In this document: positions 5,524 through 47,481 of the stretch, piece after piece
Layout: each line of letters opens with the position of its first letter
How positions within the stretch are numbered: position 1 is the first letter of the stretch
Assembly (NCBI RefSeq): GCF_044647545.1
Contig: NZ_CP172818.1
Length of the DNA stretch: 64,000 nucleotides
Source: Escherichia coli
GTDB lineage: Bacteria; Pseudomonadota; Gammaproteobacteria; Enterobacterales; Enterobacteriaceae
Strand: one strand, 5' to 3'
Program-made: the position numbers and the translations under genes
The notes under the pieces: model-generated
Databases searched by the model: none
The model's input: the letters and a program-made list of their open reading frames with translations, nothing else
Told to the model about the DNA's origin: nothing

Positions 5524-6489
5524 ATGAATACTGTCGGCACGCCGTTGCTATGGGGCGGATTCGCTGTTGTTGTCACCATTATGCTGGCTATCGACCTGTT
5601 GTTGCAGGGGCGTCGTGGGGCACATGCCATGACCATGAAACAGGCTGCGGCCTGGTCGCTGGTCTGGGTGACGCTGTCGTTACTGTTTAACGCCGCTTTC
5701 TGGTGGTATCTGGTGCAAACCGAAGGTCGCGCCGTTGCCGATCCACAGGCACTGGCCTTTCTCACGGGTTATCTGATTGAGAAATCGCTGGCGGTCGATA
5801 ACGTCTTTGTCTGGCTGATGTTGTTCAGCTATTTCTCTGTTCCGGCGGCATTACAACGTCGCGTGCTGGTGTATGGCGTGCTTGGGGCGATTGTTCTGCG
5901 TACCATCATGATCTTCACTGGTAGCTGGCTGATTTCACAGTTCGACTGGATCTTGTATATCTTCGGTGCCTTCCTGCTGTTTACCGGCGTGAAGATGGCG
6001 CTGGCTCATGAAGATGAATCAGGCATTGGCGACAAGCCGCTGGTGCGCTGGCTACGCGGTCATTTACGCATGACCGACACCATCGACAACGAGCATTTCT
6101 TTGTGCGTAAGAATGGTTTGTTGTATGCCACGCCGCTGATGCTGGTGCTGATTCTGGTGGAGTTGAGCGACGTGATTTTCGCCGTGGATAGTATTCCGGC
6201 TATCTTCGCCGTGACCACCGATCCGTTTATTGTGCTGACCTCAAACCTGTTTGCGATCCTCGGCCTGCGTGCGATGTATTTCCTGCTGGCAGGTGTGGCA
6301 GAGCGTTTCTCGATGCTCAAATATGGTCTGGCGGTGATTCTGGTGTTTATCGGTATCAAGATGCTGATTGTCGACTTCTACCATATTCCGATCGCCGTCT
6401 CGCTGGGCGTGGTGTTTGGCATTCTGGTGATGACGTTTATTATCAACGCCTGGGTGAATTATCGGCATGATAAGCAGCGGGTAGAATAA
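5524..6489 (+). CDS. alx: TerC-family inner membrane protein (putative Mn exporter)
   Basis: 321 aa multi-pass membrane ORF. Confidence 0.9.
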
Positions 6490-6812
6490 TTTTTAATCTG
6501 CCTAAGCCGTGTACCCTGTCATCAACATGAGCACCGTTTTCTCCCTCTCCCCAAAAGGGGCGAGGGGACTGACCGAGTACTTTTTTGACGTTGTCATCAG
6601 TCTGGAAGCCGCACGTTGGGCTTTATTTTTATGTCAAATAAATGTAACCATTAAGTTGCAAAATATGACCTCTCTTTAAAATCCAGCATTTTTCGCTTCC
6701 CGAAGCTGTAACTTTCCTTATACTCGACCTTGCAAACACTTTGTTACATCCTGAAAGATGCGTCGACAGAACGCACCAGGGATGTGCGACAACACAATGA
6801 AAGGATCGAAAA

Positions 6813-13440: not shown

Positions 13441-13530
13441 AATCATGCGATTTATATTTTAACAATGGCATACGCATGCATAAAGTGGTATAATAACTTT
13501 GTCTGCCGCATTCCACTCCTGGAGACGCAT

Positions 13531-14651: not shown

Positions 14652-15314
14652 ATGGAACTTTTGACCCAATTGCTGCAAGCCCTGTGGGCGCAGGATTTTG
14701 AAACCCTGGCCAATCCGTCGATGATTGGCATGTTGTATTTTGTCTTGTTTGTCATTTTGTTCCTTGAAAACGGCTTGCTTCCGGCGGCCTTTTTACCGGG
14801 CGACAGTTTACTGGTACTGGTCGGCGTATTGATTGCGAAAGGCGCGATGGGCTATCCGCAAACGATTCTGCTGCTGACCGTTGCCGCCAGCCTCGGTTGC
14901 TGGGTCAGCTATATTCAGGGGCGATGGCTGGGCAATACCCGCACCGTACAAAACTGGCTATCTCATTTACCCGCGCATTATCATCAACGCGCACACCATC
15001 TTTTTCATAAACACGGTTTATCGGCGCTGTTAATTGGTCGCTTTATTGCGTTTGTCAGAACACTGCTGCCGACGATTGCCGGGTTATCAGGGCTGAATAA
15101 CGCGCGCTTTCAGTTCTTCAACTGGATGAGTGGTCTGCTGTGGGTATTGATCCTGACAACTCTGGGTTACATGCTCGGCAAAACGCCGGTATTTTTAAAG
15201 TACGAGGACCAGCTGATGTCATGCCTGATGCTGCTCCCGGTGGTGCTGCTGGTGTTTGGCCTGGCAGGTTCTCTGGTTGTGTTATGGAAAAAGAAATATG
15301 GAAATCGGGGGTAA
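14652..15314 (+). CDS. yqjA: DedA-family inner membrane protein
   Basis: 220 aa ORF. Confidence 0.9.
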
Positions 15315-23545: not shown

Positions 23546-23931
23546 TCAAGAAAATGCCAGGAACGGAGAAACACAAAGCAACAAACCAGTGACGATAATC
23601 AGGTACAGAGACATCCCTTTGTATTTGTGCAATGCCGGTACTTTGTAAACCAGCCACGCCGGGATCAGGCACCCTACCATGCCGAAAATCGGGCTACAGA
23701 TAGAGGTGAAGCTCAACACCGGTGCGTTCAGTACGATGGCGCTCCAGGCCAGCAAAATGGCGAAAATCATGATGCCGCGCTGAACGAGATTTTCGTTAAT
23801 CTTCTCGGCAGGCATCTTGCGACGCAGGATGTTCATTACGATCCCTTGCGTTGCTTCGCGAAAGCCTAAATAGACGCCAAAAAACGCGGTCATTACTGCA
23901 AAGATATTGAGAATGACGCTGACCCTTTCAC
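23546..23931 (-). pseudogene. cyuP: 3' fragment of the cysteine transporter gene cyuP (yhaO); 5' part replaced by anomalous sequence
   Basis: Reading frame ends ...VSVILNIFAVMTAFFGVYLGFREATQG...LLLCVSPFLAFS; upstream of codon ~23931 the frame runs into G/P/W-rich low-complexity translation. Confidence 0.75.
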
Positions 23932-24645
<714 letters not shown>

Positions 24646-24893
24646 TTACCGAAAGCGTCAAAGAAAATGCTTATCTTATCGATCCAAAAATTAATTACAA
24701 TACAGATTTAAACATAGAGGATTCTAGCTCAGAGGAATTCCTTTCAGATAATACACTAGAGAAAGACGAAAATTCTCCTGACAATTGCTTTGAGGTCGTA
24801 AAATATAACACATATGAAGCTTATAACTCAGAGAAGCAATATTTTACCAGAGAGGACTATACGTATGATTACGACCTTTTAAATGCAATATAG
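24646..24893 (+). pseudogene. AT-rich 3' gene fragment, possibly the end of yhaC
   Basis: In-frame translation ...ENAYLIDPKINYNTDLNIEDSSSEEFLSDNTLEKDENSPDNCFEVVKYNTYEAYNSEKQYFTREDYTYDYDLLNAI*; position just upstream of the rnpB terminators; identity to yhaC not verified. Confidence 0.3.
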
Positions 24894-24949: not shown

Positions 24950-25025
24950 CTCCAAAAGCAAAAACCCGCCGAAGCGGGTTTTTATAAAGCTCCAAAAGCA
25001 AAAACCCGCCGAAGCGGGTTTTTAC
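24950..25025 (-). terminator. Tandem direct repeats each carrying a hairpin terminator downstream of rnpB
   Basis: Two copies of ctccaaaagcaaaaacccgccgaagcgggttttta (24950-24987, 24990-25025); on the minus strand cccgcttcggcggg followed by a T run. Confidence 0.7.
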
Positions 25026-29724: not shown

Positions 29725-30098
29725 TTTATTTACCTCGGGTACTTATGCTGATTTTTATTATTATGGGGAAGGTGTTATTTATGAGTTTTATTTATGCCGT
29801 TACGGCAATGAACTCGGGAATTAGTATAAGCAGCGCGAGAATAATAATCATTGTGCAAATGCTAATTTAATTAATACTATTTAAATATTATTTTGAGCAT
29901 ATGCACATAAGGTTGCGCGCTAAAGCACAGATTTGCGCTTTACCTTGCCGGACGGCACTGCAATCCCTGAAATGATTGACATTGATCACATTTCTGCGTT
30001 TAAACTCCTGACATTCTTATTTCACCCAATGAAGTCATTTATTTTTAAATGAGACCAGGTCCTCATTTTAATAACCCCTGGCTGGAGAATATTGCACA

Positions 30099-32672: not shown

Positions 32673-33482
32673 TCACTCCCCGACCAGAATCACTTCAACC
32701 CCAGCCTTTCGCAGTCCTTCCAGACTATCCGCAGGAATGCCTTCATCAACAATGATCATGTCGATACGTTGAGTATCAATGATCTTATGTAAACTGGAAC
32801 GGTTGAACTTACTGGAATCGGTGACCACGATGATCCGTTCCGCAACTTCGCACATCCGACGGTTTAAACGGGCTTCATCTTCATTATGCGTGCTGACGCC
32901 GCGCTCCAGATCGATCGCATCTACACCAAGAAACAGCATATCGAAGTGGTAATTTTGCAGCGATTGCTCAGCCTGATCACCGTAAAAAGATTGCGACTGA
33001 CGGCGCAAATGCCCCCCGGTCATCAGCAGCTCAACGCCTTCCGCTTCCAGCAACGCATTAGCCACGTTCATACCGTTGGTCATCGCAATTACGTCGGTGT
33101 GCTTGCGCATCAGACGAGCAATCTCAAAAGTGGTGGTCCCGGAGTCGAGGATCACCCGATGACCAGGCTGAATCAACTCAACGGCAGCTTTCGCAACGCT
33201 GCGTTTCATTGCGGTGTTCAGCGCGCTTTTATCTTCCACTGATGGCTCGACTGACGGCGTCGTGCTATCGCAGATCAACGCGCCGCCATAGGCACGCACA
33301 GCGATCCCCTGCTTTTCCAGAAACGCCAGATCGTTGCGGATCGTCACAGTAGATACACCATACAACGCCGATAGATCATTAACTTGCACACTCCCTTGCT
33401 GGCGCAGGCGTTGAATGATCTGCTCTCGTCGCTCACTGGTGCCTGTCACTCGCTTCTCGCCTGAAGCGTCGGTATTACTCAT
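32673..33482 (-). CDS. agaR: DeoR-family repressor of the aga operon
   Basis: 269 aa ORF. Confidence 0.9.
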
Positions 33483-35033: not shown

Positions 35034-35507
35034 ATGCCAAATATTGTTTTAAGCCGGATTGATGAGCGTTTGATTCACGGTCAGGTCGGCGTTCAGTGGG
35101 TCGGATTTGCGGGGGCAAATCTGGTGCTGGTAGCCAACGATGAGGTTGCCGAAGATCCGGTACAACAAAACCTGATGGAAATGGTACTGGCAGAAGGGAT
35201 CGCCGTACGTTTCTGGACGCTGCAAAAAGTCATCGACAACATTCATCGCGCCGCCGATCGACAGAAAATCCTGCTGGTTTGTAAAACACCTGCCGATTTC
35301 CTGACGCTGGTGAAAGGTGGCGTTCCGGTGAATCGCATTAACGTTGGCAATATGCACTACGCCAATGGCAAGCAACAAATCGCCAAAACGGTTTCTGTGG
35401 ATGCGGGTGATATCGCAGCATTTAACGACCTGAAAGCCGCTGGGGTGGAATGCTTCGTTCAGGGCGTCCCGACAGAGCCTGCTGTGGACCTCTTTAAATT
35501 ACTTTGA
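35034..35507 (+). CDS. agaV: PTS GalNAc-specific EIIB component
   Basis: Start at MPNIVLSRIDERLIHGQ gives 157 aa. Confidence 0.9.
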   Translation: MPNIVLSRIDERLIHGQVGVQWVGFAGANLVLVANDEVAEDPVQQNLMEMVLAEGIAVRFWTLQKVIDNIHRAADRQKILLVCKTPADFLTLVKGGVPVNRINVGNMHYANGKQQIAKTVSVDAGDIAAFNDLKAAGVECFVQGVPTEPAVDLFKLL

Positions 35508-35517
35508 GGGATTCATC

Positions 35518-35919
35518 ATGGAAATCAGTCTGTTGCAGGCATTCGCGTTGGGCATTATCGCCTTTATCGCTGGCCTGGATATGTTTAACGGCCTAACCCA
35601 TATGCACCGCCCGGTGGTCCTCGGCCCGTTGGTCGGGCTGGTACTTGGCGATCTGCATACCGGTATTTTAACCGGCGGTACGCTGGAACTGGTGTGGATG
35701 GGGCTGGCCCCGCTGGCGGGCGCACAGCCGCCTAACGTGATTATCGGTACTATCGTCGGCACGGCGTTTGCCATTACTACTGGCGTGAAACCCGATGTCG
35801 CGGTCGGTGTCGCCGTACCTTTCGCTGTCGCAGTACAGATGGGGATTACCTTCCTGTTCTCGGTGATGTCCGGCGTGATGTCCCGCGGCGACCTGGCAAC
35901 AAACCCGTGCCGCGTTTGA
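35518..35919 (+). pseudogene. agaW: Truncated PTS EIIC gene (agaW'), K-12-type
   Basis: 133 aa EIIC N-terminal fragment ending abruptly (...DLATNPCRV*). Confidence 0.8.
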
Positions 35920-35938
35920 CGCTGGTGCCGACGGCCTG

Positions 35939-36442
35939 GTGCATTGCTATAACGGGATGACAGGTTTACATCACCGCGAACCGGGAATGGTTGGCGCGGG
36001 ATTAACGGACAAGCGCGCCTGGCTGGAACTGATAGCCGATGGTCATCATGTACATCCGGCGGCGATGTCGCTGTGTTGTTGCTGTGCGAAAGAGAGAATC
36101 GTGCTGATCACCGACGCGATGCAGGCAGCCGGGATGCCGGATGGTCGCTATACGTTATGTGGTGAAGAAGTGCAGATGCACGATGGCGTTGTCCGTACCG
36201 CGTCCGGTGGGCTGGCGGGCAGTACGCTGTCTGTCGATGCGGCAGTGCGCAACATGGTCGAGTTGACGGGCGTAACGCCTGCGGAAGCCATCCATATGGC
36301 ATCGCTGCATCCGGCGCGTATGCTGGGTGTTGATGGTGTTCTGGGATCGCTTAAACCGGGCAAACGCGCCAGCGTCGTTGCGCTGGATAGCGGGCTGCAT
36401 GTGCAACAAATCTGGATTCAGGGTCAATTAGCTTCGTTTTGA
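35939..36442 (+). pseudogene. agaA: 5'-truncated GlcNAc/GalNAc-6-phosphate deacetylase gene (agaA'), K-12-type
   Basis: 167 aa C-terminal deacetylase fragment with no plausible N-terminus. Confidence 0.8.
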
Positions 36443-36792: not shown

Positions 36793-37947
36793 ATGCCAGA
36801 AAATTACACCCCTGCTGCCGCTGCAACCGGTACATGGACTGAAGAAGAGATCCGCCATCAGCCTCGCGCATGGATCCGTTCACTCACCAACATCGACGCG
36901 CTACGTTCCGCGCTCAATAACTTCCTTGAACCGTTACTGCGCAAAGAGAATCTGCGGGTAATCCTGACCGGAGCCGGAACCTCGGCATTTATCGGTGATA
37001 TCATCGCGCCGTGGCTCGCCAGCCATACCGGTAAAAACTTCAGCGCCGTACCGACCACCGATCTGGTCACTAATCCGATGGACTACCTGAATCCAGCTCA
37101 TCCGCTACTGTTGATCTCCTTCGGTCGATCCGGCAACAGCCCGGAAAGCGTCGCCGCCGTGGAACTGGCGAATCAGTTTGTACCGGAATGCTATCACCTG
37201 CCGATCACCTGCAACGAAGCGGGCGCTCTTTACCAAAACGCGATCAACAGCGACAACGCGTTTGCCCTGCTGATGCCCGCAGAAACGCACGATCGCGGCT
37301 TTGCGATGACCAGCAGCATTACCACCATGATGGCCAGCTGCCTCGCGGTTTTCGCACCTGAGACGATCAACAGCCAAACCTTCCGCGATGTGGCAGATCG
37401 TTGCCAGGAAATCCTGACCTCACTGGGCGATTTCAGCGAAGGTGTGTTTGGTTACGCACCGTGGAAACGGATCGTTTATCTCGGCAGCGGTGGCTTACAG
37501 GGCGCAGCACGCGAGTCGGCGCTGAAAGTACTGGAACTGACAGCGGGTAAACTGGCGGCCTTTTATGATTCCCCGACCGGATTCCGTCATGGCCCGAAAT
37601 CGCTGGTCGATAACGAAACGCTGGTGGTGGTGTTTGTCTCCAGCCACCCTTACACCCGTCAGTATGATCTTGATCTGCTGGCAGAACTCCGCCGCGATAA
37701 CCAGGCATTGCGCGTAATCGCCATCGCCGCGGAAAGCAACGACGTTATTACCGCCGGTCCACATATCATCCTGCCGCCGTCCCGTCACTTTATCGACGTT
37801 GAGCAGGCATTTTGCTTCCTGATGTACGCCCAGACGTTTGCACTGATGCAGTCGCTGCACATGGGTAATACGCCGGATACCCCATCAGCCAGTGGCACCG
37901 TTAACCGCGTGGTGCAAGGCGTAATCATTCATCCGTGGCAGGCATAA
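36793..37947 (+). CDS. agaS: Galactosamine-6-phosphate deaminase/isomerase (SIS domains)
   Basis: 384 aa ORF. Confidence 0.9.
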   Translation: MPENYTPAAAATGTWTEEEIRHQPRAWIRSLTNIDALRSALNNFLEPLLRKENLRVILTGAGTSAFIGDIIAPWLASHTGKNFSAVPTTDLVTNPMDYLNPAHPLLLISFGRSGNSPESVAAVELANQFVPECYHLPITCNEAGALYQNAINSDNAFALLMPAETHDRGFAMTSSITTMMASCLAVFAPETINSQTFRDVADRCQEILTSLGDFSEGVFGYAPWKRIVYLGSGGLQGAARESALKVLELTAGKLAAFYDSPTGFRHGPKSLVDNETLVVVFVSSHPYTRQYDLDLLAELRRDNQALRVIAIAAESNDVITAGPHIILPPSRHFIDVEQAFCFLMYAQTFALMQSLHMGNTPDTPSASGTVNRVVQGVIIHPWQA

Positions 37948-41086: not shown

Positions 41087-41953
41087 ATGGAACGAGGCAC
41101 TGCGTCTGGCGGTGCCTCTTTACTTAAGGAATTTCATCCTGTGCAAACCCTTCAACAAGTTGAAAACTATACGGCGTTAAGTGAACGTGCCAGCGAATAT
41201 TTATTGGCCGTGATCCGTAGTAAACCGGATGCCGTGATTTGCCTGGCGACCGGAGCCACGCCATTACTGACGTATCATTATCTGGTAGAAAAAATCCACC
41301 AGCAGCAGGTTGATGTCAGCCAGCTCACCTTCGTGAAGCTCGACGAATGGGTGGATCTGCCATTAACAATGCCTGGCACCTGCGAAACTTTCCTACAACA
41401 GCATATCGTGCAGCCGCTGGGGCTGCGTGAAGACCAGCTCATCAGCTTTCGCTCTGAAGAGATAAATGAGACAGAGTGCGAACGGGTAACGAACCTGATT
41501 GCGCGCAAAGGCGGTCTGGATTTATGCGTTCTCGGATTGGGGAAAAACGGTCATCTTGGGCTGAACGAACCGGGAGAAAGCCTGCAACCGGCCTGCCATA
41601 TCAGTCAACTTGATGCCAGAACACAGCAACATGAGATGTTAAAAACCGCGGGCCGTCCCGTGACTCGTGGGATCACCTTAGGCCTGAAGGATATTCTCAA
41701 TACCCGCGAAGTTTTGCTACTGGTGACTGGCGAAGGAAAGCAGGATGCGACAGAACGTTTTCTCACGGCTAAAGTCTCTACCGCTATCCCGGCTTCTTGG
41801 GGCAACGCCCACACTCTCCCCCTGCTGCTCCAGTGCATACTTATACAGCGCATTTTTCTTCACGCCGTGAATTTCTGCTGCCAGCGCCGCCGCTTTTTTC
41901 AGTGGCAGTTCTGCCTGCAACAGCGCCAGCGTGCGCAGGGCATCGGCGGGTAA
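41087..41953 (+). pseudogene. agaI: Glucosamine-6-phosphate deaminase/isomerase-like gene with altered 3' end (native stop lost; frame runs antisense into rsmI)
   Basis: ORF is 288 aa versus an expected ~251; tail after ~41815 is the antisense of the rsmI 3' end. Confidence 0.7.
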
Positions 41954-42676
41954 GTCTTCTTCCTGTGCTTTATGGCCTTCGACAATCAGTACCATTTCGC
42001 CTTTGCGACGGTTTTCATCTTCTTTGACCCACGCCAGCAGCTCGCCAACGGGCGCGCCGTGAATGGTTTCCCAGGTTTTGGTCAGCTCACGCGCCAGAAC
42101 GACGTAGCGGGATTCGCCTAATACCGCAACGATATCTTCCAGGCTATCTAACAGACGGTGGGTAGATTCATAAAAAATCAGCGTGCGCGGCTCCGCTTCA
42201 ATGGCTTTTAGCGCATCACGGCGGCCTTTTGATTTGGCAGGTAAAAAGCCTTCATAACAAAAACGATCGGATGGTAAACCCGCGGCGCTTAACGCAGTGA
42301 TAGCAGCACACGGCCCGGGTAGCGGCACCACGCGAATCCCCGCTTCACGGCAGGTACGCACCAGATGGTAGCCAGGATCGTTAATTAGCGGCGTTCCGGC
42401 ATCGGAAACCAGCGCAATGTTTTGCCCCTCTTGCAGCTTCGCCAGCAGCGTTTCGGCTTTTTGTTGTTCGTTATGGTCGTGCAGCGCAAACAACCGAGCA
42501 TTAATCCCAAAATGTTGCAGCAATAAACCGGTGTGACGCGTATCCTCGGCGGCAATCAGATCAACGGCCTGTAATACCTCCAACGCACGCTGGGTGATAT
42601 CCGCCAGATTGCCGATTGGCGTCGGTACAATGTAAAGCTGGCCCTGAGAATTATCCGCCGATTGGTGTTGTTTCAT
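41717..42676 (-). CDS. rsmI: 16S rRNA 2'-O-ribose C1402 methyltransferase with a ~32-aa C-terminal extension (native stop lost)
   Basis: ORF 319 aa; residues 1-287 read as RsmI ([30 protein letters not shown] ... ALEQQGE), then [32 protein letters not shown], which is antisense to agaI. Confidence 0.8.
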
Positions 42677-46325: not shown

Positions 46326-46440
46326 GCCATTGATCGGTCGTTGAAGTAAATATTCACACCTTAGCCGACCTGTTCCCCTCACCCTAACCCTCCCCAAACC
46401 GAAAGGGGACAGATCAGGCTGTATTCAGGAGCATCCAACA

Positions 46441-47481
46441 TCAGGCCAACAGCGCCAACCCGCCGACAATCACACCAGACACTGCCACCATCGCCCCTGT
46501 CAGCCATAAGGCTTTCGCCGGGAACGCTTTGCGCAGCATAATCAGTGACGGCAAACTCACCGCCGGGAGCGTCATCAACAATGCCAGCGCCGGAGCGGTT
46601 CCCATGCCTGCCAGCATCATCGTTTGTACAATCGGAATTTCTGCTGCCGTGGGAATGACAAACAAGCATCCTGCCACCGCCATCGCCACCACCCACATCA
46701 GGCTGTTATCGACAGCACCATCGGCATGGGGGAATAACCAGACGCGAGCGGCACCCAACACCAGTACTGCAAGGATGTAAACCGGGATCGTACTCCAGAA
46801 AAGCGTCCATAGCGCCCTGCCCCAGCGGCTAAAAAATCCTCCCTGTGCTTCCGGTATGTCAATTTCGACCGGTGCCTGCGTTTGCGGTGTTTCACGCACC
46901 CATTTTTGCACCAGCGTCGCAATCAGCAACACCATCACCAGCCCCGCCACCAGACGAATCGCGGCAAAGCCCCAGCCAAGGACAAATCCCATGAATACCA
47001 GCGTCGCCGGGTTTAACAACGGATTCCCCATCCAGAATGCCAGCGCGCCCCCCATCGATACCTGTTGACGCCGCATTCCCGCCGCGACCGGAGCCGCACA
47101 GCAGGTACACATCATGCCCGGCAGCGAAAACAGCGTTCCCAGCAGCGTGCCGCGAAAGCGCGATTGCCCAAGCGTACGCAATAACCAGTCACGCGGGATC
47201 AGCACCTGAATCAACGACCCGAGCAGTACGCCCAGCACCGCCGCTTTCCATACCGCGAGGAAATAGATCATCGCGTAATCCAACGCCGCCTGCCACGGAT
47301 TAGCATCCGCCTGCGCAAGGATAGATTTACCGATACTGTGGGTTTCGGCAGCAGTAAACGCTTTGCCGTAGTAAGGTTGCCATTTCACATACCAGAGACC
47401 AGCAATGACAACGAGAAAGAAAAGCGCGGGTTTCCACCACTGAATGGGCGTTGCCGCCTGAGATGAAGACTGACCAGTCAT
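46441..47481 (-). CDS. yraQ: Putative permease (DUF318)
   Basis: 346 aa membrane ORF. Confidence 0.85.
   Translation of the reverse strand: MTGQSSSQAATPIQWWKPALFFLVVIAGLWYVKWQPYYGKAFTAAETHSIGKSILAQADANPWQAALDYAMIYFLAVWKAAVLGVLLGSLIQVLIPRDWLLRTLGQSRFRGTLLGTLFSLPGMMCTCCAAPVAAGMRRQQVSMGGALAFWMGNPLLNPATLVFMGFVLGWGFAAIRLVAGLVMVLLIATLVQKWVRETPQTQAPVEIDIPEAQGGFFSRWGRALWTLFWSTIPVYILAVLVLGAARVWLFPHADGAVDNSLMWVVAMAVAGCLFVIPTAAEIPIVQTMMLAGMGTAPALALLMTLPAVSLPSLIMLRKAFPAKALWLTGAMVAVSGVIVGGLALLA

Follow-up and report, generated by a model that had tools for sequence, protein, structure and literature searches.

The 2.3-kb agaW'-agaA' deletion of Escherichia coli K-12 has reportedly been known since the work of Brinkkotter et al. 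in 2000, and we take the agaW' and agaA' remnants that it left to be the pseudogenes b3134 and b3135. The lesion makes K-12 Aga- Gam- and has been explained by recombination involving sites within agaW and agaA (Hu et al. 2013, PMC3668189); a passage of PMC2808357 also describes the K-12 aga deletion, citing Brinkkotter 2000. The intact aga/gam cluster, found in E. coli C, B, O157 and ST648-type strains, has the order kbaZ-agaVWEFA / agaS-kbaY-agaBCDI. Here we analyze a stretch of E. coli DNA of 64,000 nucleotides ('the window') whose aga locus has a gap shaped like that of K-12. The gap is a specific structure and not a chance pattern, and the structure is already known; most likely, it is not a feature of the organism itself.

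The aga locus of the window

The genes, remnants and junction of the aga locus are as follows (window coordinates, strand in brackets).

32673..33482 (-): agaR, repressor of the aga/gam regulon, intact; a 269-aa ORF at the same position as the annotated agaR of K-12, REL606 and IMT16316
33731..35011 (+): kbaZ, intact (NF012002 KbaZ, 897.8 bits, full length)
35034..35507 (+): agaV (EIIB-Aga), intact, with ATG at 35034 (NF008508, 319.5 bits, profile positions 1-157 of 157)
35518..35919 (+): agaW' remnant ORF of 133 aa; as far as the junction it consists of agaW codons, and its tail is agaA DNA read out of frame, ending in ...SRGDLATNPCRV and a stop
35884..35893 (+): deletion junction, the 10-mer CGCGGCGACC, equal to the agaA-side copy of a near-repeat (blastn segments overlap by 10 bp)
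35894..36442 (+): agaA' remnant, the C-terminal third of the deacetylase; 100% identical to the 3' DNA of nagA/agaA in IMT16316
36793..41086 (+): agaS, kbaY, agaB, agaC and agaD (second operon), all intact and 100% identical to IMT16316
41087..41953 (+): agaI, whose 3' end is missing because it runs into a garbled spacer at 41797-41819; the ORF is prolonged to 288 aa and overlaps a stop-less rsmI ORF

Both remnants match only part of the corresponding protein models. The agaW' ORF covers profile positions 1-116 of 249 of the AgaW model NF040757 (E 6e-57, under the full-length cut-off), and the longest ORF inside the agaA' remnant (35939..36442, (+), 167 aa, GTG start) covers positions 218-379 of 380 of the nagA/agaA model TIGR00221 (E 2e-40). 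The two ORFs lie 19 nt apart, neither agaE nor agaF was found between agaV (35034..35507) and agaS (36793..37947), and the remaining genes around the gap give full-length profile matches. A sequence-only reading of this DNA had described exactly such an arrangement, with an agaW ORF ending at 133 aa, a partial C-terminal agaA ORF behind it, and agaE and agaF absent, and on these points it was borne out. Alignment with the intact loci of REL606 and IMT16316 agrees: exactly 2,305 bp are missing, comprising the 3' half of agaW, agaE, agaF and the 5' two-thirds of agaA, and no full-length copy of any of the four genes is found at the locus.

The breakpoints fall within the 10-bp near-repeat at 35884-35893, and extent and register are those of the K-12 deletion. 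The agaW-side copy of the near-repeat reads CGATGCGACC in IMT16316 and CGCTGCGACC in REL606 and K-12. Between the agaW and agaA breakpoint regions no extended homology was found beyond the 10-mer, and the local background of such pairs is dense, with ~9,600 10-mer pairs matching at 8 or more of 10 positions within 6 kb, and ~40 perfect pairs. An 8-bp inverted repeat was also seen by eye and judged insignificant.

Haplotype of the window

Over all 64 kb the window is 96-97.8% identical to K-12 and 99.9-100% identical to IMT16316, with 100% identity to the latter over stretches of 13.4, 6.1 and 15.3 kb. IMT16316 (NZ_CP023815.1) belongs to a set of ST131/ST648 wild-type strains (PMC4794485). With the genome group typified by IMT16316 and FDAARGOS_497 the window shares 99.9% identity over 24 kb; these two, which were inspected, have intact agaW, agaE, agaF and agaA and are naturally without yraHIJK. 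More than 160 near-identical complete genomes span ~2.4 kb or more of extra sequence at the position of the aga gap. IMT16316 itself we take to be ST648 specifically.

The same holds next to the gap, where 9.9 kb on the left and 5.9 kb on the right are 100% IMT16316 and the sole difference is a dinucleotide in the junction (2 mismatches). In the 3 kb round the junction, the window differs from IMT16316 at 2 positions and from K-12 at 133, and the nearest K-12 SNPs flank the junction on either side at a distance of 1-3 bp. Across the junction, identity to K-12 is 97.5%, and the best full-length match among 5,426 complete E. coli genomes reaches 98.0%. Searching with a 40-nt junction probe gave the K-12 form in 369 genomes and the window's form in none of the 5,426 complete E. 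coli genomes. Outside laboratory strains, the K-12 junction stood on the K-12 haplotype in the carriers examined, with 0 differences in 3 kb for TUM12357 and A134_1EC and 4 for HS-01.

TUM12357 (NZ_CP134370.1) is a chicken-meat isolate of 5.03 Mb that carries the K-12 aga deletion in a haplotype equal to K-12 over 3 kb. At the aga locus, judged from these 3 kb, this isolate may be naturally related to K-12, and it would help to date the real K-12 deletion.

The K-12 marker structure and the ST648-type SNP haplotype of the window disagree, and a lineage call from structure alone is therefore wrong. The sequence-only reading had made such a call, holding that the deletion pins the window to K-12-like strains, which is contradicted by the identity to K-12 over the 64 kb and by the flanks of pure IMT16316 sequence.

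K-12-shaped anomalies across the 64 kb

IMT16316 and K-12 have just six structural differences in the window's span, and the departures of the window from IMT16316 fall almost exclusively at five of them.

13436/13437: in IMT16316, exuT and exuR are separated by a CS1-type fimbrial operon of 5,342 bp, which K-12 lacks; the operon is absent from the window
24955-24990: K-12 has ~475 bp of extra tandem repeats beside rnpB; the window has a 33-bp duplicated terminator hairpin (AAAAACCCGCCGAAGCGGGTTTTT) that is absent from IMT16316
35884-35893: IMT16316 has the 2,305-bp aga block, which K-12 is without; the block is absent from the window
41797-41819: K-12 has yraHIJK and IMT16316 its own spacer of about 99-108 bp; the window has 15 garbled bp
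46393-46442: the dolP-yraQ spacer, non-homologous between IMT16316 and K-12; the window has IMT16316-like edges and a scrambled center

Traces of K-12 letters accompany several of these sites. The CS1-type operon of IMT16316 encodes a chaperone, major subunit, usher and tip adhesin; beside its boundary, in otherwise 100% IMT16316 sequence, the window has the K-12 alleles A at 13492 and a CTG insertion at 13503-13505. In the agaI-rsmI spacer a C-run is lengthened, agaI is without its last ~19 codons and rsmI without its stop codon, such that the agaI ORF (41087-41953, (+), 288 aa) overlaps the rsmI ORF (41717-42676, (-), 319 aa). A search with these two ORFs found neither on record. In the dolP-yraQ spacer, nine clustered substitutions or indels destroy a perfect hairpin of IMT16316, CCCTCTCCCC-AAA-GGGGAGAGGG; the yraQ stop is TGA as in K-12, with a K-12-like 2-bp state at 46442, and the surrounding 22 kb are otherwise almost identical to IMT16316.

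A further anomaly is a low-complexity block of C and G, 714 bp long (23937-24650; C12, C12 and G28 runs; up to 96% G+C), preceded by a 1-bp error at 23924. It stands in place of ~12.3 kb that are present in both IMT16316 and K-12, holding the 5' part of cyuP, tdcG to tdcA, tdcR, yhaB and part of yhaC. The block is not E. coli sequence and looks like filler from assembly or polishing. The window thus has what marks a template artefact: large blocks absent from K-12 are missing, differences sit at structural sites together with leftover K-12 alleles, and there is non-biological filler.

Other assemblies with the same gap

The aga gap was found on four haplotypes, namely those of K-12, of BS-04 and BS-01, of CP147423.1, and of the window. 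The junction of CP147423.1 is the window's, and that of BS-04 and BS-01 is one base shorter.

The chromosome CP147423.1 (GCA_037201865.1) measures 4.55 Mb and shares 99.9% identity with the LS45/XH992 clade. The LS45 clade records listed measure 4.9-5.5 Mb, and LS45, the one inspected, has 5.12 Mb and an intact aga locus. CP147423.1 is the only public contig encoding the exact AgaW' protein of the window, to which it is identical from -90 to +101 bp round the junction. Its agaI-rsmI spacer has an intermediate form, in which exactly the K-12-alignable parts are kept and the 72 bp that K-12 lacks are dropped, and two of nine substitutions are leftover K-12 alleles. The genome collection has no de novo assembly of this strain on record, and a literature search found no mention of CP147423. 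Descent of CP147423.1 from the window's strain, as a mutator or error-laden derivative, was considered and rejected, as its changes comprise 107 synonymous and 28 non-synonymous ones and a different natural clade matches it at 99.9% identity.

In CP147423.1, kbaZ and garP moreover carry premature stops or frameshifts of their own. An identical truncated GarP of 367 aa, from a garP broken into 367 + 75 aa, is present in 39 collection blocks, including the Logan records ERR3712698, SRR26400277 and ERR11566325, on backgrounds that are ~1.5% diverged from CP147423.1 and have intact aga loci. This truncation looks like a pseudogene polymorphism of garP that is widespread. As a marker of relatives of CP147423.1 the truncated GarP proved uninformative, the contigs that share it being only 98.5% identical.

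BS-04 (NZ_CP172819.1) is a RefSeq 'complete genome' of 4.52 Mb, 100% identical to YA-1-type genomes (~4.85 Mb; YA-1 itself 4.84 Mb, intact), and was compared with YA-1 and K-12 over 50 kb. It is without agaWEFA and without the CS1 operon, and ~160 bp of poly-T junk fill its exuT-exuR spacer. Where YA-1 has two REP copies, BS-04 has the single copy of K-12 in garbled form, and the rnpB-yhaC repeats are scrambled. These anomalies lie at 6370-6527, 15230-15249, 29909-29940 and 40816 of the compared stretch, and outside the garbled sites of structural difference between K-12 and YA-1 the identity to YA-1 is 99.9-100%. BS-04 is probably a K-12-guided assembly. BS-01 (NZ_CP172816.1) has a junction of the BS-04 type, as seen by BLAST only. 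Read from their sequences, the window, BS-04 and CP147423.1 are one signature on three backbones, consisting of the sample's letters, the architecture of K-12 and filler at unresolved sites.

Source of the gap

The gap is very probably an artefact of the reconstruction of an IMT16316-like genome on a K-12 template. The window is a mosaic of sample letters on K-12 architecture, and this mosaic recurs in two other assemblies; the templating procedure itself we infer from sequence patterns alone. For example, reads of a wild strain could have been mapped or polished against a K-12 reference, in which case SNPs and small indels of the template would be corrected to the sample and template segments without read support would be removed. 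Sequence that K-12 lacks could not be added in this way, so that the 2.3-kb agaW-A block would stay missing and the K-12 aga deletion would persist. The junction bases would be fixed by agaA-side reads aligning across the 10-bp near-repeat, which would give CG and not the CT of K-12. Several features count against templating. Simple templating does not predict that the tdc region, whose 12.3 kb K-12 and IMT16316 both possess, would be lost, few K-12 alleles are left over (3 sites in the window), and the aga junction is clean, as in a real deletion. In addition, the ~120-bp dolP-yraQ spacer, which is not that of K-12, is largely recovered, and the procedure would therefore have been more than plain consensus calling. 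Prompted by the low-complexity block, we also considered that the sequence of the window was machine-generated. This is less likely than templating, given 13-15 kb of exact single-strain haplotype and the presence of the signature in deposited assemblies, and if true it would lead to the same verdict on the aga gap.

One could instead suppose that these 2,305 bp were genuinely and independently lost from an ST648-type strain, when slippage or illegitimate recombination acted on a near-repeat that is a true hot spot, in line with the 'site-specific recombination' proposed for K-12. A clean junction in the K-12 register would then be expected, the agaA version of the repeat is what slippage in the opposite direction would leave, and the gap does stand on three non-K-12 haplotypes (window, CP147423.1 and BS-04). 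However, all three of these carriers are K-12-sized assemblies, and each of them is garbled either in the agaI-rsmI spacer, which K-12 lacks, or at other boundaries specific to K-12; the window and BS-04, in which the CS1 site can be examined, are each also without the CS1 operon and contain homopolymer junk. Among the 5,426 complete genomes, none of normal size has the gap on a non-K-12 haplotype, and scans of metagenome contigs gave no non-K-12 junction, whereas the positive control, the K-12 junction on the K-12 haplotype, was recovered in 4 contigs. The near-repeat is also no better than thousands of neighboring pairs and is without extended homology, so true recurrence at this agaW/agaA pair is not expected; microhomology alone cannot explain a hot spot, and a dedicated mechanism would therefore be needed. 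We consider an independent deletion improbable for these reasons, and there is likewise only a slim chance that the agaW/agaA near-repeat is a site-specific deletion hot spot, with independent losses in K-12, in at least one wild strain of ST648 type and possibly also in the lineages of BS-04 and CP147423.1. Were it one, use of GalNAc and GalN would be repeatedly abolished. With an ordinary repeat, and with every non-K-12 carrier both K-12-sized and affected by other K-12-shaped defects, recurrent hot-spot deletion was rejected as the main explanation.

It is very improbable that an ST648-type chromosome received the deletion allele through homologous recombination, in a short patch whose donor was K-12-like or CP147423-like. 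A patch of up to ~190 bp from a CP147423-like donor would leave no SNP trace, but the K-12 SNPs that flank the junction on either side at 1-3 bp exclude a K-12 donor, and CP147423.1, the only possible donor type and sole public carrier, shows the template signature itself. Import would also leave the other K-12-shaped anomalies of the window unaccounted for. Finally, descent of the window from K-12, or from a close relative that inherited the classical deletion, has almost no probability left. The remnant ORF lengths (133 + 167 aa) and the missing genes are those of K-12, yet the window sides with IMT16316 over the whole 64 kb, has neither yraHIJK nor the K-12 REP insert, differs in its junction bases, and shows 133 differences in 3 kb where true carriers of the K-12 haplotype show 0-4. 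K-12 ancestry is already refuted by this comparison of sequences.

Implications for phenotype and data quality

Neither K-12 lineage nor an Aga- phenotype should be derived from the window, because the gap was probably inherited from the template. To infer that this strain cannot use GalNAc is unsafe for the same reason, as the gap would reflect the K-12 template and not the sequenced strain, and the gap is weak evidence of an Aga- strain. If it were real, EIIC-Aga, EIID-Aga and the shared EIIA (agaF) would be lost, and by analogy with K-12 the strain would be expected to be Aga- Gam- (PMC3668189), with agaS, kbaYZ and agaBCD as unusable remnants. As biology the gap matters little, and as a flag for data quality it is useful. 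BS-04 and BS-01 (by its junction), both RefSeq 'complete genomes', and CP147423.1 in GenBank have the K-12-shaped pattern, which could mislead analyses of pangenomes, gene presence and absence, or deletion hot spots.

Comparison with known systems

In architecture the gap is that of K-12, and to this extent its description as the characteristic K-12 deletion stands. The same 2,305 bp are missing, with breakpoints in the same 10-bp near-repeat and in the same register, remnants of 133 and 167 aa are left without agaE or agaF, and in both cases agaV and agaS are kept and the downstream agaS-kbaY-agaBCD operon is intact. The description does not extend to the junction bases or to the flanking haplotype, neither of which is that of K-12. 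The near-repeat copy at the junction is that of agaA in the window (CGCGGCGACC) and that of agaW in K-12 (CGCTGCGACC); in longer context, the window reads …GTCCCGCGGCGACCTGG… and K-12 …GTCTCGCTGCGACCTGG…, and the dinucleotide within the junction is CG in the window and CT in K-12. AgaW' consequently has 133 aa in both but not the same end, the tail being ...SRGDLATNPCRV in the window and ...SRCDLATNPRRI in K-12 (P0003), with the C-termini ...RGDLATNPCRV and ...RCDLATNPRRI respectively. K-12 also has the yraHIJK operon and, downstream of agaA', a REP insert, both absent from the window.

Compared with the intact cluster of E. coli C, B, O157 and ST648-type strains, every base kept at the locus is the IMT16316 allele, whereas the 3' half of agaW, agaE, agaF and the 5' two-thirds of agaA are lacking. 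There is a further likeness to BS-04, BS-01 and CP147423.1, which share with the window a wild SNP haplotype on K-12 architecture, a genome size near that of K-12, and the lack of insertions that K-12 does not have. They differ in that the filler is C/G-rich in the window and poly-T in BS-04, and in that the window is moreover without the tdc region.
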